Source: Thermoanaerobaculia bacterium
GTDB taxonomy: Bacteria > Acidobacteriota > Thermoanaerobaculia > Multivoradales > Multivoraceae
DNA: 64,000 nucleotides
Reading direction: 5' to 3'
Assembly (NCBI GenBank): GCA_963664405.1
Contig: OY761158.1
Location: 4,256,001 to 4,320,000, forward strand
Below, piece by piece: positions 13,986 through 29,558 of this stretch (positions are counted from its first letter, which is position 1; each line of letters starts with the position of its first letter). The notes below the pieces were generated by a model. That model worked only from the letters and a program-made list of their open reading frames with translations, ran no database searches and was not told the DNA's origin. The translations under genes were made by a program, and so were the position numbers.

Positions 13986-14130
13986 CCTAGGCTCCAGAAA
14001 TGATGGCTATCATTTCCTCCGCCTAGTTGTCTCTTGGCGCCGAGGACGGCGCACTTGGGCGTTGCTTCCTATTCGCTCACGGAAACGGCTCAGGACGAAT
14101 ACTCGGACACGCTCCTAGCCTCCAGAAATG

Positions 14131-15414
14131 GGCTCTTCAGGATTTCGTGTGGGTTGATCGTATGCTGCGAGTATGCGAGATCGAGAGCTTTACGCCCAGC
14201 TTCTTGGGATCGAGGAGCCGTGGCATGTGACAGATGTAGAGCTAGGTCCAGAGACGGTGGAAGTGCACTTGGAGAACGGGTCACGGAAGCTAGCGTGTCC
14301 GGAATGCGGAGCGGCGAGTCCGCGCTACGACACGCGTGAGCGCAAGTGGCGTCACCTCGACACGATGCAGTACATGACGGTTCTGGTCGCGGAGGTTCCT
14401 CGTGTGAAGTGCGGAGATCACGGCGTCCGTCAGGTTCGTGTGCCGTGGGCCGAGGTCGGCTCGGGCTTCACGGCACAGTTCGAGCGGCTGGCGATCGACT
14501 GGCTTGGAGAGTCGAATCTCTCGGCTGTTGCCCGGCTTCTGCGTTTGAGCTGGGATCAGATCGACGGGGTTCAGCAGCGTGCCGTGGGCCGAGGATTGGC
14601 CCGCAGAACGCTGCGCCCGACCCGCCATCTGGGTGTAGACGAGACGTCGTTTCAACGCCGGCACGAGTACGTCACGGTGGTCGTGGACAGCAGTCACGGG
14701 ACGGTGGTTCACGTCGCGGACGGTCGGGGTCGGGAAGCTCTAGGGAAGTTTTTGCAAGGTGCTCCAGCGTCGTGGCTTAGCCAGGTGGAGACGCTGGCGA
14801 TGGACATGTGGGGCCCCTACATCTCGGCGGCCAGCGAGCATCTCGACAAGCCGCTTGAGCGCATCGTCTTTGACAAGTTTCACGTCGCCAAGCTTCTGGG
14901 TGACGCCGTCGATCGTGTCCGTCGCCAGGAACATCGAGACCTTCGCTCGGATGGCGACGATCGGCTCAGTCGGACTCGCTACCTCTGGTTGCGCAATCCC
15001 GACCACATGACCTCGGAGCAGGAGCTTCGCTTCGAGGAGCTTCGCAATAGCGCACTGAAAACGGCACGGGCCTGGGCGATCAAGGAGCTGGCGATGACCG
15101 TGTGGGAGACCAGCGCCGCGGACGACGCCGAACAGGCCTGGGCCTCCTGGTACTCCTGGGCGATCCGTTCCCGCCTCGCTCCCATCAAGAAGGTGGCCAA
15201 AACCCTACGCCATTACCTGTGGGGCATCGTCAACGCCATGAAGACCGGCGTCACCAACGCCATGTCCGAGGGCCTCAACACCAAGATCCAGAACATCAAA
15301 AGAGCCGCGCGAGGATTCCGTAATCGGGAGCGATTCCGCAACGCCATCTACTTCCATCTTGGAGGGCTCGATCTCTACCCGAGGCCTGTTGCCCACACGA
15401 AATCCTGAAGAGCC
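14131..15414 (+). mobile_element. ISL3-family insertion sequence, complete
   Basis: 23-bp perfect IRs GGCTCTTCAGGATTTCGTGTGGG; 8-bp target duplication CAGAAATG (14123-14130 / 15415-15422). Confidence 0.96.
14173..15408 (+). CDS. ISL3 transposase
   Basis: CPECG zinc finger, WRHLD, GVDETS, MDMW, FDKFHV, TNAMSEGLNTKIQNIKRAARGFRN. Confidence 0.96.
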   Translation: MRDRELYAQLLGIEEPWHVTDVELGPETVEVHLENGSRKLACPECGAASPRYDTRERKWRHLDTMQYMTVLVAEVPRVKCGDHGVRQVRVPWAEVGSGFTAQFERLAIDWLGESNLSAVARLLRLSWDQIDGVQQRAVGRGLARRTLRPTRHLGVDETSFQRRHEYVTVVVDSSHGTVVHVADGRGREALGKFLQGAPASWLSQVETLAMDMWGPYISAASEHLDKPLERIVFDKFHVAKLLGDAVDRVRRQEHRDLRSDGDDRLSRTRYLWLRNPDHMTSEQELRFEELRNSALKTARAWAIKELAMTVWETSAADDAEQAWASWYSWAIRSRLAPIKKVAKTLRHYLWGIVNAMKTGVTNAMSEGLNTKIQNIKRAARGFRNRERFRNAIYFHLGGLDLYPRPVAHTKS

Positions 15415-16076
15415 CAGAAATGATGGCTATCATTTCCTCCGGCTAGTTTCTGTTTGGCGCCGAGGACGGCGCAGGTAGGCGTTGCTCCCTATTCGCTTCG
15501 GGTATCGGTGTCGTTTCAGGCTCCTAGCCCGAGAGGAAATGATGGCTATCATTTCCTCCGGCTAGTTTCTGTTTGGCGCCGAGGACGGCGCAGGTGGGTG
15601 TTGCTTCCTATTCGCTTCGGGTATCGGTGTCGTTTCAGGCTCCTAGCCCGAGAGGAAGTGATGGCTATCATTTCCTCCGGCTAGTTTCTGTTTGGCGCCG
15701 AGGACGGCGCAGGTGGGCGTTGCTCCCTATTCGCTTCGGGCATCGGGTGTCGTTTCAGGCTCCTAGCCCGAGAGGAAATGATGGCTATCATTTCCTCCGG
15801 CTAGTTTCTGTTTGGCGCCGAGGACGGCGCAGGTGGGTGTTGCTTCCTATTCACTTCGGGTATCGGGTGTCGTTTCAGGCTCCTAGCCTGAGAGGAAGTG
15901 ATGGCTATCATTTCCTCCGGCTAGTTTCTGTTTGGCGCCGAGGACGGCGCAGGTGGGCGTTGCTCCCTATTCGCTTCGGGTATCGGTGTCGTTCCCCAGG
16001 CTCCTAGCCCAAGAGGAAATGATGGCGCCGAGACGGCGCGTCCTCCGGGAGGGCGATCTGGGGTACCCTGAAGCTG

Positions 16077-17069
16077 ATGACGGCGCTGGTCACGGGTGGC
16101 ACCGGCTTTGTCGGCGCCCACTTGGTGCGTGCACTATTGGCTCGGGGCGAGCCTGTGCGCTGCCTGGTGCGCGAAGGAAGTCGGAGAGACAACCTGGCGG
16201 GGCTCGACGTCGAGTTGGTGGAAGGGGACTTGCGCGACTCTGCGTCTCTGGAGGCGGCTGTCGAGGGCTGTGACACCGTGTTTCACTGTGCCGCCGACTA
16301 TCGGCTTTACGTCAGGAACCCCGACGAGCTCTACGCAACGAACGTCGAAGGTACACGCAGTCTGTTGACGGCCGCTGATCGCGGAGGTGTCGCCCGAGTG
16401 GTTTACACCTCGAGTGTTGGCGCCTTGGGACTCGAGCGGAGTGCTGAGGCAGCCACCGAAGAGACCCCGGTCACGCTCGAGAGCATGGTCGGACATTACA
16501 AGAGGAGCAAATATCTGGCCGAGCGGGTCGCGGTCGAGTTTGCGGAGGGGGGCCTCCACGTGGTGATCGTCAATCCCTCCACTCCGGTGGGGGAGCTCGA
16601 TATCAAACCGACGCCGACGGGTCAGATGATCGTCGACTTCCTCAACCGCAAGATGCCGGCCTATGTCGATACCGGACTCAACCTGGTCGATGTTCGAGAT
16701 GTCGCCGAGGGCCACCTACTCGCGGCGGAGCGCGGCCGACCAGGGGAGCGATATATCCTCGGTAATCGCAACCTCAGCCTGCGCGAGATTCTGGTCTTGC
16801 TCTCTCGTCTGACCGGCCTACCGGCGCCACGACTCCGGGTACCGCATTGGCTGCCTCTTTCGTTCGCTCTTTTGGATACGGCGGTTGCGCGCCTCCGTGG
16901 TCGCGAGCCGCGGGTTGCCGTCGACAGCGTACGCATGTCACGGCACAAGATGTATTTCGATGCCTCCAAGGCGGTGGAGGAGCTCGGGTTCCGGCAGACG
17001 CCGGTTGAGGACGCGTTGGAGCGGGCGGTCAGCTGGTTTCGTGCCGGCGGCTACGCTCCCAGCCCGTGA
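16077..17069 (+). CDS. hpnA: Hopanoid-associated NAD-dependent epimerase/dehydratase HpnA
   Basis: TGGTGFVG, FHCAADYRL, HYKRSK, NPSTPVGELDIKPTPTG; hopanoid gene context. Confidence 0.9.
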   Translation: MTALVTGGTGFVGAHLVRALLARGEPVRCLVREGSRRDNLAGLDVELVEGDLRDSASLEAAVEGCDTVFHCAADYRLYVRNPDELYATNVEGTRSLLTAADRGGVARVVYTSSVGALGLERSAEAATEETPVTLESMVGHYKRSKYLAERVAVEFAEGGLHVVIVNPSTPVGELDIKPTPTGQMIVDFLNRKMPAYVDTGLNLVDVRDVAEGHLLAAERGRPGERYILGNRNLSLREILVLLSRLTGLPAPRLRVPHWLPLSFALLDTAVARLRGREPRVAVDSVRMSRHKMYFDASKAVEELGFRQTPVEDALERAVSWFRAGGYAPSP

Positions 17070-28224: not shown

Positions 28225-28454
28225 TGGCAGTGAAAACGATCACTATCGACCTAGAGGCCTACGAGCTTCTCGCCCGACGGAAGCGGAAGGGCCAGTCTTT
28301 TTCCAAGGTGATCAAGGAACACTTCGGATCGCCAACCGGTGGCGATCTGATGACTATCGTCGACCGACTTGCCGTTGAAGAGACGGCTTTGGATGCCATG
28401 GACGAGATCATCGCGCGCCGACGCGAAGACCCCGCTCGATCCGCGGATCTGTGA
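28224..28454 (+). CDS. vapB: VapB-type antitoxin (KTITI..EAYE.L..K...SFS.VI family)
   Basis: [34 protein letters not shown] overlap with the downstream PIN gene. Confidence 0.85.
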
Positions 28455-28855
28455 TCCATCTCGACACCAGCTTCATCGTCGATCTTGTGCGCGAGGCACA
28501 GCGTGGCGAAGGAGGCCCAGAGACTCGTCTGCTGCGCAGGCTCGAGAGCGAAGAGCTAGCCATAAGTACCTTTGTGCTCTGCGAGCTGAGGGCGGGGGCC
28601 GAGATGGCCCGAAACCCCATCTCCGAGCATGAGACGGTCGACCTGATTGAAGAGACGCTCTCGGTTGCGTCAGCCGACGTCTCCACGGCTGTGCACTACG
28701 GCCACAGTCTTGCGCTCCTCCGGCGACGAGGAGAGGTCATTGCGACAATGGACCTGCTGATTGCGTCAGTGAGCTTGGCGGCGGGAGCGTCTCTTGTCAC
28801 CCGCAATCGAAAGCACTTCGATCGCGTGCCTGGCCTGAAGTTGATCGACTACTGA
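28451..28855 (+). CDS. vapC: VapC PIN-domain toxin
   Basis: [34 protein letters not shown]. Confidence 0.92.
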
Positions 28856-28960
28856 TCCGCTCGGAGCCTGCGCGGCAGGAAACGAAACCGGGGACGCGGT
28901 GCCGCGGCTCGGTACGCTGCGACGGCCGGCTCTAAGGCTTGCAGAATCGGTCTTTACCGT

Positions 28961-29558
28961 TACCCGAAGCGAATAGGAAGCAATGCCCAAGTGCGCCGTC
29001 CTCGGCGCCAAACAGCAACGAGCCGGAGGAAGTGATACCCATCACTTGTGTAGGCGAGCGCCGTCCTCGGCGCCAGACAGCAGCCTAGCCGCAGGAGATG
29101 ATAGCGATCATTTCCGTAGGCTAGGGGACGAAAAGCGAATAGGAAGCAATGCCCAAGTGCGCCGTCCTCGGCGCCAGACGGTAACCTAGCCGCAGGAAAT
29201 GATAGCGATCATTTCCGTAGGGTAGGGCCGAAGCGGTTTCCCGGAGCGAATAGGAAGCAATGCCCAAGTGCGCCGTCCTCGGCGCCAGACGGTAACCTAG
29301 CCGCAGGAGATGATAGCGATCATTTCCGTAGGGTAGGGCCGAAGCGGTTTCCCGGAGCGAATAGGAAGCAATGCCCAAGTGCGCCGTCCTCGGCGCCAGA
29401 CGGTAACCTAGCCGCAGGAGATGATAGCGATCATTTCCGTAGGGTAGGGCCGAAGCGGTTTCCCGGAGCGAATAGGAAGCAATGCCCAAGTGCGCCGTCC
29501 TCGGCGCCAGACGGTAACCTAGCCGCAGGAAATGATAGCGATCATTTCCGTAGGCTAG
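28961..29558 (-). repeat. Family B array B3: three near-identical 111-bp units plus three shorter or degenerate units, on the minus strand
   Basis: Repeated GCGAATAGGAAGCAATGCCCAAGTGCGCCGTCCTCGGCGCCAGACGGTAACCTAGCCGCAGGA(A/G)ATGATAGCGATCATTTCC. Confidence 0.93.

Follow-up and report, generated by a model that had tools for sequence, protein, structure and literature searches.

The stretch of DNA analysed here, referred to as the window, comprises 64,000 nucleotides and carries three groups of closely spaced hairpins, which raises the question of what kind of sequence these arrays represent, how their units reached the present positions and how they multiplied there. All three arrays are made of small hairpin modules, non-coding and mobile, whose copies are distributed over the whole genome and constitute a new family of a known kind of bacterial intergenic repeat.

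Organization of the three arrays

A sequence-only reading had placed arrays at 13987-16040, 26903-27248 and 28961-29558, all of which are present according to direct reading and Tandem Repeats Finder, and its estimate of about 15 units agrees with 14 exact copies of GGCGCCGAGGACGGCGC and one copy with a 1-nt deletion at 16024-16039. Equally, the parts it had described, a CTAG-closed hairpin (H1), a second hairpin (H2, GGCGCCGAGGACGGCGC), the motif ..TTGCTTCCTATTCGC.. and linkers common to neighbouring units, were recovered. Array 1 is placed between a radical-SAM hpnH-like gene (12984-13985) and an epimerase gene (16077-17069), all on the same strand, and its unit 1 (13987..14118, plus strand) begins 2 nt past the TAG stop of the hpnH-like gene. 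In this unit the H1 hairpin (13987-14026, CTAG to CTAG) is followed by the linker, H2 (14036-14052) and a tail, T, ending in ..TCGGACACGCTCCTAG at 14118, and copies with 99-100% identity occur at three further loci. The 5' part of the H1 of unit 2 (14115..14130, plus strand) is severed by an insertion sequence of the ISL3 family (14131..15414, plus strand, 1284 bp), which has the inverted ends GGCTCTTCAGG..CCTGAAGAGCC and a transposase gene at 14173-15408 and splits the array inside the H1 hairpin with an 8-bp target duplication, CAGAAATG, one of the two copies being located at 14123-14130. The remainder of unit 2 and units 3-6 (15415..16040, plus strand) follow each other with a period of 119-121 as alternating dimers (Tandem Repeats Finder: 15417-16026, period 120, 5.1 copies, 94% matches, 239-bp higher-order period) and carry a tail variant ending in ..GTTTCAGGCTCCTAG; their mutual identity is 94-98%, as compared to at most 85% to any unit elsewhere, and the last unit is truncated, with half an H1 fused to the H2 with the 1-nt deletion.

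The ISL3 transposase scored 256 bits with Pfam DDE_Tnp_ISL3 and 331 bits with the NCBIfam ISL3 model (cut-off 180), and the element has 2 copies in the genome, the other one outside any hairpin. This element is an unrelated passenger and not part of the hairpin-repeat family, and the window contains no cognate enzyme. The interruption of array 1 had been overlooked in the sequence-only reading.

Array 2 starts with a 128-bp 'master' unit and its closing CTAG (26903..27034, plus strand), the first CTAG providing the TAG stop (26904-26906) of a DtxR-type repressor gene (26238-26906). The adjacent unit 2 (27031..27161, plus strand) is of a different subfamily with CTTTCAGAAATGATGAATATCATTTCCGAAAG as H1 and shows 97.5% identity to a solo unit at genome position 5984569 and only 86% to unit 1, such that array 2 consists of two unlike units next to each other (Tandem Repeats Finder: 26911-27162, period 128, 2.0 copies, 88%). 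The separate CTAG-bounded module M3 (27158..27248, plus strand; CTAG CCCTGGAAAACG..hairpin..CCGAATTCTCGGACAGGCTC CTAG) follows, has a 3' end of the same kind as tail T, is found elsewhere in copies 97-98% identical to that of the window and contains the last 12 codons and the stop of a convergent squalene/phytoene-synthase-like ORF (27213-28214, minus strand). Array 3 (28955..29558, minus strand), approximately 150 nt downstream of an acyl-CoA dehydrogenase gene (29716-30807, minus strand), has six H2 copies, with four full 111-bp units of 98-99% mutual identity and shorter, older units at the 28961-29133 end (Tandem Repeats Finder: 29058/29134-29565, period 111, 3.9 copies, 98%; units on the minus strand). 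The closest relatives of the units of arrays 1 and 3 are their own neighbours, and throughout the 27 arrays of at least three units the mean identity is 0.875 within an array versus 0.72 between arrays (95th percentile 0.83). Arrays 1 and 3 grew by local duplication.

A genome-wide family of CTAG-bounded modules

The 17-mer of H2, GGCGCCGAGGACGGCGC, is found 215 times as an exact match in the 6.78-Mb genome, or 326 times when up to 2 mismatches are allowed, while an nhmmer profile detected 317 H1-H2 units at 168 loci, with 56 multi-unit loci, arrays of up to 13 units and array-specific periods of 58-167 bp. That the arrays of the window are local instances of such a family had been missed in the sequence-only reading. 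The 128-bp unit that opens array 2 is 100% identical over its full length at 4 other loci, and the five loci have unrelated left flanks with CTAG alone in common; together with 24 copies at least 90% identical over the full length, this demonstrates that the spread of units is recent. Also the earlier description of the units as one-ended and joined through CTAG holds: a search for a two-ended master element found none, the full 128-bp unit lacks a terminal inverted repeat (TIR), and neighbouring units are arranged head-to-tail in 133 cases versus 4 in opposite, tail-to-tail orientation, a ratio that is still 28 to 3 for neighbours less than 80% identical. By a simple codon-usage gene caller of our own, crude as it is, 141 of 147 loci are intergenic; convergent gaps are enriched (59/141 loci vs 21% of all gaps) and divergent gaps depleted (10/141 vs 27%), and between genes of the same direction the unit is co-oriented with the genes in 55 versus 17 cases.

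Three modules, each bounded by CTAG, make up the mosaic units: the H1 palindrome, linker-H2-tail and M3. Clustering of CTAG-to-CTAG segments recovered H1 (49+10 copies), linker-H2-tail (31) and M3 (39) and, equally, several foldback MITE families of about 160 bp (78, 24, 13, 13, 11, 10 and 10 copies), in a genome in which CTAG is three-fold under-represented (7502 observed, 23,228 expected). A segmental duplication (1279.7 kb vs 1644.5 kb) shows that H1 is exchanged as a cassette between otherwise identical segments: 330 nt upstream are identical and about 95 nt past H1 differ at 3 positions, whereas in the 32-nt H1, which the CTAGs enclose, 11 positions and an indel distinguish the two copies, and further on the linker and H1 past an H2 have been swapped for another type. 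Where the upstream gene is co-oriented (105 loci), its TAG stop coincides with the TAG of the 5' NTAG of H1 in 51 cases, and at least 13 of 72 convergent downstream genes, as counted by eye, stop inside the terminal CTAG of the element. Unrelated CTAG-flanked foldback MITEs contact stop codons just as often (59/159, 37%, vs 20/49, 41%, for H1), which argues for target choice and not for an RNA function as the cause of this contact.

H1 is a 32-nt imperfect palindrome between CTAGs, and the covariation of its closing stem, proposed from the window, is real: of the cells in 34 diverse units, taken from this genome and relatives, 92.6% are paired as compared to 76.5% in shuffles, with 0 of 500 shuffles reaching the value and 29-49% pairing when the partners are slid. 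Both sides have changed in 12 of 15 pairs, and covariation is also seen on 248 distinct units. The long foldback MITEs of the genome keep their arms complementary while diverging, so that arm covariation can arise at the DNA level. Furthermore, the asymmetric internal loop of H1 is conserved and the apex, TGNT-NNNT-ANCA, invariant, units in Thermoanaerobaculia MAG records have quite different H1 sequences, and H2 is invariant across subfamilies with H1 differing by 30-40% and in other genomes. These invariant features point to structure-specific recognition, which a TIR-binding transposase does not predict.

Relation to known intergenic repeats

The family shares with the REP/BIME sequences and RAYTs of proteobacteria the high copy number, the extragenic position, an imperfect palindrome that measures about 35-40 bp and bears a four-letter tag, the clustering into mosaics with linker motifs, the location at gene 3' ends and in convergent gaps, the use as target by IS110-type elements and the preservation of the stem by compensatory change (PMC2817692, PMC3333891, PMC3337134, PMC3733652). 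It differs in that the tag is CTAG/NTAG on both sides instead of GTAG or CGTC at one end, the units run head-to-tail instead of alternating, a second invariant hairpin, H2, that is not a palindrome partner and long tails are present, and no RAYT gene is flanked by the repeat. BOX elements of Streptococcus pneumoniae and the MIRU-type VNTRs of mycobacteria are equally modular with a middle module repeated a variable number of times, and form tandem arrays in the intergenic gaps of operons, co-oriented with the genes and overlapping stop codons; a sequence relation is not apparent, the modules here are CTAG-bounded and individually exchanged, and the units are not traversed by a conserved small ORF, as most of the periods (61-62, 111, 120 and 128) are not divisible by three.

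DDE transposases of the IS5/IS1182 and IS630 types duplicate CTAG or TA and mobilise MITEs in trans. With MITEs of this kind the units have in common that they are non-coding, carry CTAG on both sides, pile up at CTAG, differ in presence between strains and between duplicated segments and land on stop codons at the rate of the ordinary foldback MITEs of the genome; in addition, one tail variant, in 18 units, ends in CTGCCGCGCAGACTC-CTAG, the terminal repeat of a resident IS1182-family element. On the other hand, the whole unit has no TIRs, known MITEs are much longer than the 32 nt of H1 alone, the units show a strong orientation bias and no autonomous element carries H1 or H2. With palindrome-associated elements derived from IS200/IS605 and with IS91 the units share a subterminal hairpin, a junction tetranucleotide, the lack of TIRs and one-ended head-to-tail products, but they show neither replication-strand bias nor Y1/Y2 adjacency, and the hairpins of their two ends differ.

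Spread and amplification of the modules

As a whole, a mobile mosaic combined with local amplification is considered a fairly probable origin of the arrays. As with REP/BIME, BOX or MITE elements, the family would be non-coding and non-autonomous, with CTAG-bounded modules (H1; linker, invariant H2 and one of several tails; M3) as building blocks, and an enzyme acting in trans would move single modules and whole 128-bp units onto CTAG, the safest occurrences of this rare sequence presumably being TAG stop codons. Landing would leave CTAG on both sides, so that occupied sites could attract more modules and mosaics pile up. Arrays might subsequently form either by different units landing side by side, as in array 2, or by tandem duplication of a resident unit through unequal crossing-over or slippage, as in arrays 1 and 3.

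As a tentative best guess, the moving enzyme might be a CTAG-duplicating DDE transposase like that of the resident IS1182-family element (363 bits, cut-off 270). CTAG adjoins this element on the left in 8/8 copies and on the right in 7/7 readable cases, one copy has inserted precisely into the CTAG that joins an H1 to its linker-H2, and the CTAG joints of the units are matched by the IS1182-family element as well as by many ordinary TIR-bearing CTAG-flanked MITEs. A DDE cut-and-paste enzyme normally needs terminal inverted repeats, whereas the 128-bp unit has none and matches IS1182 at one end in one tail variant only. Equally, landing on the palindromic CTAG should give random orientation, yet 133 versus 4 was observed; part of this head-to-tail bias might be due to exchange of H1 within old duplicates, and target choice alone leaves the co-orientation with flanking genes unexplained. 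In a related strain (contigs of runs X8 and X9, two studies) position 28364 is joined straight to 29692, the segment 28365-29691 with array 3 and a vapC gene being absent; two MITE blocks flanked by CTAG (window 17863-18036 and 25880-26216) are also missing from these contigs, which retain the first units of arrays 1 and 2. No empty site for H1 or a whole unit was found, and insertion may duplicate CTAG, TA or nothing.

The one-ended, head-to-tail units without TIRs would also be the product of an HUH enzyme, the type of mechanism favoured by the sequence-only reading, in which a Y1 (RAYT/IS200-like) or Y2 (IS91-like) protein recognises single-stranded H1, cuts at CTAG and re-inserts the unit 3' of another CTAG. 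A hairpin with a flanking tetranucleotide follows the end logic of REP/RAYT and IS200/IS605, the covarying H1 stem with its asymmetric loop is compatible with such recognition, and at the tail-T and M3 ends a hairpin, GTCCGAATWCTCGGAC, precedes the terminal cut site by 10 nt, an arrangement that resembles the right end of IS608. The genome encodes 13 Y1 (RAYT-like) proteins with 'REP-associated tyrosine transposase' as best NCBIfam model, although the two tested scored 54.5 and 41.7 bits against a cut-off of 80, and 7 full-length IS91-type Y2 proteins. Units do not flank any of the Y1 genes: for 11 of 13 the nearest unit is more than 6 kb away, and the 2.5 kb around 12 of 13 contain no flanking inverted repeats and no CTAG module. 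Units are equally missing from the IS91 ends, and 34 of 41 relatives have Y1 genes irrespective of the presence of the repeat, among them complete genomes without it. Unit orientation versus replication direction, with origin and terminus set from GC skew only, is 63 versus 84 and thus without strand bias or lagging-strand signature, and the left (H1) and right (tail) hairpins are dissimilar, while the hairpins recognised by a single Y1 enzyme are normally alike at the two ends. As the RAYT-like and IS91 genes are never unit-flanked and strand bias is absent, an HUH route is unsupported and considered unlikely.

Similarly improbable is a host-used transcript element at gene 3' ends that is kept by selection with mobility being secondary, be it an mRNA 3'-end stabiliser, a terminator without U tract, a processing site or, in the case of an array, a precursor from which small RNAs are cleaved. 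The co-orientation with genes, the enrichment in convergent and depletion in divergent gaps, the invariant H2 and an H1 covarying across subfamilies and MAG units, the location of array 1 inside a same-strand hopanoid gene cluster and the predicted fold obtained on the sense strand are consistent with such a role. REP-type elements, though, have a like placement bias without being primarily RNA genes, and stop-codon contact and complementary arms are shared by unrelated MITEs. Furthermore, fold z-scores are modest and no better on the sense (-1.85) than on the antisense strand (-2.31), no U tract follows H2, no Rfam family reached its gathering score, the only three matches with E up to 1 being at chance level, and array 3 is dispensable in the related strain.

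The single IS-like end noted earlier, TCGGACACGCTCCTAG, is real and without an inverted partner (62 exact copies genome-wide and 86 with up to 2 mismatches, no inverted pairs within 5 kb among the latter), but it is no IS end and instead a fixed target of an IS110/IS1111-type element, six copies of which, five with an intact DEDD_Tnp_IS110 gene, sit at the identical position GAATWCTCGGA^CACGCTCCTAG in tail T (3) or M3 (3). Units might accordingly excise as circles that a guide-RNA-directed DEDD recombinase of this type re-integrates in one orientation, as such enzymes need no TIRs, and the 5' arm of H1, GGCTCCAGAAATGATGG, matches the joined ends of the element, GAGTCCAGATA|TGATGA, at 13/17 positions in an uncontrolled comparison by eye. 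This match was spotted after several comparisons, the element inserts 11 nt inside the tail and not at the CTAG where units join, and the left flanks of the units share only CTAG while the IS110/IS1111 family normally needs a specific target of at least 10 nt, which makes circle integration very improbable. That the arrays are collapsed or expanded repeats of the assembly is scarcely credible: short-read contigs of four public runs do break inside all three arrays and thus give no independent measure of array length, but the genome is a single 6.78-Mb contig, the units differ at scattered positions in an ordered dimeric pattern, the 56 multi-unit loci have periods of their own, and the array flanks and first units recur in contigs of four runs from four studies.

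The arrays and their units

The three arrays of family B proposed in the sequence-only reading (array 1, 13987-16040; array 2, 26903-27248; array 3, 28961-29558, with its units on the minus strand) were recovered both by direct reading of the sequence and by Tandem Repeats Finder, which reports a repeat of period 120 with 5.1 copies and 94% matches plus a higher-order period of 239 bp in array 1 (15417-16026), a repeat of period 128 with 2 copies at 88% in array 2 (26911-27162) and a minus-strand repeat of period 111 with 3.9 copies at 98% in array 3 (29058/29134-29565). Each unit is composed, in this order, of the hairpin H1, a linker, the hairpin H2 and a tail. 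H1, about 40 nt long, is a hairpin that CTAG..CTAG closes, with the inner stem GAAATGAT/ATCATTTC and an internal loop of 3-4 nt; a linker of about 9 nt separates it from H2, the 17-mer GGCGCCGAGGACGGCGC, and the tail contains ..GCGTTGCTTCCTATTCGC.. and terminates in ..CTCCTAG. The earlier estimate of about 15 units agrees with the 14 exact copies of H2 across the three arrays and one additional copy with a 1-nt deletion. As whole periods recur at 94-98% identity without unique spacers, a CRISPR array was dismissed.

Array 1 is flanked by a radical-SAM hpnH-like gene and an epimerase gene, array 2 by genes for a DtxR-type repressor and a squalene/phytoene-synthase-like protein, and array 3 by vapBC and an acyl-CoA dehydrogenase gene. 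A 1284-bp insertion sequence of the ISL3 family (14131-15414; 256 bits with Pfam, 331 against a cut-off of 180 with NCBIfam), absent from the first description, interrupts array 1 within H1 of unit 2, where it is bordered by the 8-bp duplication CAGAAATG. With only two copies in the genome, the second of which lies outside any hairpin, and with its 8-bp duplication, this element was rejected as the mobilising enzyme and is a passenger in array 1. At 13981-13990, the hpnH-like stop codon and the first H1 read GCCTAG-C-CTAGG, a near-duplicate CCTAG which might be the footprint of the original insertion. Directly after array 2 lies a copy of M3, a separate CTAG-bounded module (27158-27248). The squalene/phytoene-synthase-like open reading frame (27213-28214, minus strand) has its stop codon and last 12 codons inside this module (27213-27248), such that either its C-terminus is repeat-derived or the call has been lengthened by the insertion of M3.

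Structure and genomic setting of the family

In the genome, a single contig of 6.78 Mb with 62.6% G+C, the copy count called for by the sequence-only reading amounts to 215 exact H2 sequences (106 on the plus and 109 on the minus strand) and to 326 with at most two mismatches. A profile search for H1-linker-H2 (threshold E <= 1e-3) identified 317 units at 168 loci, consisting of 112 single units and 56 arrays of 2-13 units. The period, ranging from 58 to 167 bp, is specific to each array; short units of 58-70 bp comprise H1-linker-H2 only, with CTAG often missing inside such arrays, while the tail is present in the long units (111-167 bp). The arrays are real, and they belong to a new family of mosaic repeats of REP/BIME-MITE type, which adds a well-defined family from the barely studied Acidobacteriota lineage Thermoanaerobaculia to the few bacterial mosaic repeats. 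Equally, it constitutes a warning for annotation, as repeats are the source of about 170 intergenic loci and of the 3' ends of many genes in this genome.

Rfam 15 gave no match at gathering score in the 64-kb window, and the three matches within 13900-16100 (E 0.19-0.65) were all far under the gathering score. A structural alignment was built from 34 diverse units: the window contributed 5, the rest of the genome 20, and another 9 came from loci in records titled as Thermoanaerobaculia metagenome-assembled genomes (MAGs). Pairing is found in 92.6% of its cells compared with 76.5% in shuffles, none of 500 of which reached the observed value, and drops to 29-49% when partners are slid. Both sides change in 12 of the 15 H1 pairs, and the H1 apex TGNT-NNNT-ANCA and the whole of H2 are invariant; the 248 distinct units of the genome display the same pattern of pairing and conservation. 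H1 carries an asymmetric internal loop, and the H2 17-mer is letter-perfect across subfamilies and genera. As the pairs of H1 covary and H2 does not vary, what is preserved in H1 is the hairpin and in H2 the sequence. However, the arms of the foldback MITEs of about 160 bp in this genome also stay complementary though the families diverge, so the covariation of the H1 arms need not mean an RNA function. A mini-ORF starting with ATG/GTG at the H1 apex was dropped, since only transitions occur there and the periods break every frame.

CTAG is scarce in this genome (7502 found versus 23,228 expected). When the genome was split at all CTAGs and the resulting segments were clustered, H1 (49+10 copies), linker-H2-tail (31 copies) and M3 (39 copies) emerged as families, next to seven foldback MITE families of about 160-190 bp, and halves thereof, with 78, 24, 13, 13, 11, 10 and 10 copies. 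H1 can stand alone between two CTAGs, and linker-H2-tail can lack H1. CTAG stands on both sides of every module, yet it is palindromic and belongs to the stem of H1. The arms of H1, by itself a palindrome, are inverted repeats, while the two ends of the dispersed 128-bp unit differ, GCTCCAGAAATG.. versus ..CGGACACGCTC. The MITE families of about 160 bp all share the central core ..GCAGGCATATTGGGCAATATGTCGAGGAGG.. and differ in their terminal repeats.

Gene context was assessed with gene calls from a codon-usage caller of our own (5460 genes, 85% of the genome), according to which intergenic positions account for 141 of 147 loci. There are 59 loci in convergent gaps and 10 in divergent gaps; in gaps between genes of the same direction the unit is co-oriented at 55 and opposed at 17. 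At 51 of the 105 loci that have a co-oriented gene upstream, the TAG of this gene is the TAG of the first NTAG of H1. Within the window, the DtxR-type gene has its stop in the TAG of H1, and the hpnH-like gene stops 2 nt ahead of H1. By eye, the terminal CTAG of the element supplies the stop codon of at least 13 of 72 convergent downstream genes. Among all CTAGs of the genome, 874 lie at stop codons, 2571 are intergenic and 4057 coding. An RNA function linked to the stop codon is weakened by the control, as unrelated CTAG-flanked foldback MITEs touch stop codons equally often (59/159, 37%, versus 20/49, 41%, for H1). Any element that inserts at CTAG and persists only at harmless sites is therefore expected to make such contact. 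A CTAG-poor genome in this way channels mobile DNA onto TAG stops and rewrites gene ends, as for the DtxR-type repressor and the squalene-synthase-like gene. A literature search gave nothing usable on an effect of REPs at stop codons on translation.

Spread of the modules and candidate enzymes

Unit 1 of array 2, a 128-bp unit which we call the 'master' unit, recurs with 100% identity at five loci with unrelated left flanks. Altogether 24 copies of the 128-bp unit are at least 90% identical over full length, and their right flank is nearly always another CTAG-bounded module. Unit 2 of array 2 shares 86% identity with its neighbour but 97.5% with a solo unit at a distance of 1.7 Mb, so that array 2 consists of two independent arrivals and M3. 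Exchange can be followed in a segmental duplication that is recent, spans at least 2 kb and covers the end of a sulfatase-like gene and a repeat cluster (genome 1279.7-1280.7 kb versus 1644.5-1645.7 kb). The 330 nt upstream of the stop codon are identical, and about 95 nt after H1 show 3 differences, while the 32-nt H1 between two CTAGs shows 11 differences and an indel; further on, the linker and H1 past an H2 are swapped for another type, and a 'master' unit has been added to one of the copies. The duplicates differ almost solely by exchanged repeat modules and provide a natural before/after case for the study of the family. H1 thus acts as an exchangeable cassette, with a left border that has nothing but CTAG in common with other copies. 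Rare-tetranucleotide borders, the cassette swap in a recent duplication and identical copies at five loci make the dynamics of this family unusually readable.

Presence/absence differences comprise the H1 swap and the extra unit in the duplication, and the lack of array 3 in contigs of a related strain, represented by the runs X8 and X9 from two studies and differing by few bases per hundred. These contigs include the first units of arrays 1 and 2 and skip 17863-18036, 25880-26216 and 28365-29691 of the window. The first two stretches correspond to foldback MITEs flanked by CTAG, a single one of about 158 bp that has the terminal inverted repeat (TIR) ACCAGCGTTTCCAAAG (17860-18025) and an adjacent pair of about 158 and 161 bp (25877-26207), which on this ground are recent insertions; both skipped stretches are 9-12 nt longer than element plus CTAG. 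By fusing 28364 to 29692, the contigs lack the 3' part of vapB, vapC (PIN) and array 3; the toxin-antitoxin pair and array 3 form one strain-variable block.

Local growth has a different signature. In the 27 arrays of three or more units, mean identity is 0.875 within and 0.72 between arrays (95th percentile 0.83). The units of arrays 1 and 3 match their neighbours at 94-99% identity and units elsewhere at no more than 85-94%, and two variants alternate in array 1 to create its 239-bp period; these two arrays grew in place. Neighbouring pairs are oriented the same way in 133 cases, tail-to-tail in 4 and head-to-head in none; among neighbours less than 80% identical, 28 have the same and 3 the opposite orientation. 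The most likely mechanism combines two steps: small modules would be mobilised in trans, with their landing directed to CTAG, and local tandem amplification would follow after landing.

As the enzyme we favour an IS1182-type DDE transposase. The IS1182-family element (363 bits against a cut-off of 270) has CTAG on the left in 8/8 aligned copies and on the right in 7/7 readable flanks, one copy sits exactly in the CTAG between H1 and its linker-H2, and in 18 units the tail ends in the IS1182-family terminal repeat CTGCCGCGCAGACTC-CTAG, at one end only. No insertion sequence in the genome carries H1, H2 or the end of tail T, tail T being one variant of the tail. When the flanks of 468 CTAG-bounded segments were joined and searched against the genome, no empty site for H1 or whole units was recovered, only gapped self-matches; the sole clean match, 1787228 versus 379930, turned out to be two insertion sequence copies beside the same MITE. 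A literature search gave nothing usable on a CTAG-specific IS1182 or a comparable MITE family. The genome carries a very heavy mobile load with 8 copies of IS1182, 7 full-length IS91-type elements, 15 IS110-type and 26 DDE_Tnp_1 matches, several insertion sequences present in 15-30 nearly identical copies each, and CTAG-flanked MITEs in the hundreds.

A further candidate, to which we give only a small chance, is a dedicated trans-acting Thermoanaerobaculia protein that would recognise H1 plus H2 and move or copy TIR-less modules hairpin-first, in one orientation, at NTAG. If true, this would be hairpin-guided mobilisation outside the RAYT, IS200/IS605, IS91 and DDE schemes, and the same system would build stop-codon-embedded hairpins, possibly affecting the expression of about 100 genes. 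Should the enzyme not be a DDE transposase, the invariant H2 hairpin would be a direct handle on it.

Spread by a rolling-circle or HUH-type enzyme, as preferred in the sequence-only reading, fared worse, with RAYT, TIR-flanked Y1, IS91 adjacency and replication-strand tests all negative. The genome has 13 Y1_Tnp matches (RAYT-like or IS200-like; frames of 300-440 aa). For the two Y1 proteins tested, the best NCBIfam model was the REP-associated tyrosine transposase, with 54.5 and 41.7 bits against a cut-off of 80. Eleven of the 13 Y1 genes have no unit within 6 kb, and around 12 of the 13 flanking inverted repeats and CTAG modules are both absent within 2.5 kb. Y1 genes occur in 34/41 related genomes and the 20-nt H2 pattern in only 1/40 relatives. 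No unit was found at the ends of the elements with IS91-type Y2 genes (14 matches, 7 full-length), so that the proposed search for RAYT/HUH or IS91 genes flanked by units came back empty. Relative to the replichores, 63 loci are co-oriented and 84 anti-oriented, with origin and terminus approximated from cumulative GC skew. The HUH reading nonetheless keeps a low probability; a polar enzyme that reads structure accounts better than a classical DDE transposase for the combination of hairpin and tetranucleotide, the lack of TIRs and the head-to-tail bias.

The possibility that the units are amplified halves of a two-ended MITE was not borne out: the tail end forms no inverted pair within 5 kb, and no single element recurs across the 4 tail-to-tail loci, two of which are one segmental duplication. 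IS630 was rejected on just two DDE_3 genes, with 88% similarity across the gene body and without recognisable inverted ends; no intact IS630 element was found.

The single IS-like end noted earlier without a matching second repeat holds in so far as no element has it at both ends; its nature is a different one. Tail T and M3 share the 3' end TCGGACACGCTCCTAG, in which ACGCTC and CTAG come after the small hairpin GTCCGAATWCTCGGAC, and this end is a landing pad for an IS110/IS1111-type element. Six copies of this element (genome 3366918, 3697418, 3900594, 5489215, 5984691 and 6026932, outside the window) sit exactly at GAATWCTCGGA^CACGCTCCTAG, with T and M3 holding three each, and five of the six retain an intact DEDD_Tnp_IS110 gene. 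In other bacteria, REPs are landing pads for IS110/IS1111-type elements. The repeat serves as landing ground for three different insertion sequence families. The joined ends of the IS110/IS1111-type element, GAGTCCAGATA|TGATGA, match the H1 5' arm GGCTCCAGAAATGATGG at 13/17 positions, as judged by eye.

Known repeats and other genomes

In size, copy number and location the family corresponds to REP/BIME elements, which are imperfect palindromes of 20-40 bp in more than 100 extragenic copies, H1 measuring about 40 bp including its CTAGs. The tag of the REP palindrome is GTAG or CGTC at one end (PMC3733652), whereas here NTAG is paired with CTAN on both sides, mostly as CTAG, and GTAG is in the minority among the 51 stop-codon cases. 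Equally, REPs alternate in orientation inside BIMEs and REPINs (PMC2817692, PMC3337134), whereas the present units stand head-to-tail. The REPtron, a RAYT gene flanked by REPs, has no counterpart here, the best RAYT score remaining below its cut-off.

The exact H2 17-mer, with its 215 copies here, reaches 0-5 copies per genome in 400 other genomes of the phylum and is present in 23 of them, compared with 6 for a reversed control; as most relatives are represented by fragmented MAGs, where the assembly of repeats is poor, absence of the 17-mer there is weak evidence. Genuine units with the same H2 and a different H1, often with a stop codon at the foot of the hairpin, occur at at least 9 loci in two Thermoanaerobaculia MAG records and in the related genome G013. 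Of the 50 loci listed in a scan for the exact pattern across all species genomes, 38 had no upstream H1 and were coding-like by eye.

In G201, a genome placed in another family, all 5 units fall into the last ~210 kb of contig C5 (loci L034-L045). This contig tail contains insertion sequences 99-100% identical to those of the present genome, and over its last 9.8 kb it matches the contig end of the latter at 99.99% identity; it is not syntenic with this genome and yielded no empty sites. The G201 units may not be independent of those described here, and the tail could be a chimeric assembly, the result of mis-binning or a very recent transfer. The 5 copies of the 17-mer in G109, a genome of the same class (loci L021-L025), were rejected as family B, as they belong to a different GC-rich hairpin repeat, GGAGCGCCGGCGTCCCGCCGGCTGG... 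This repeat has the identical 17-mer at its centre, and the 17-mer may predate family B.
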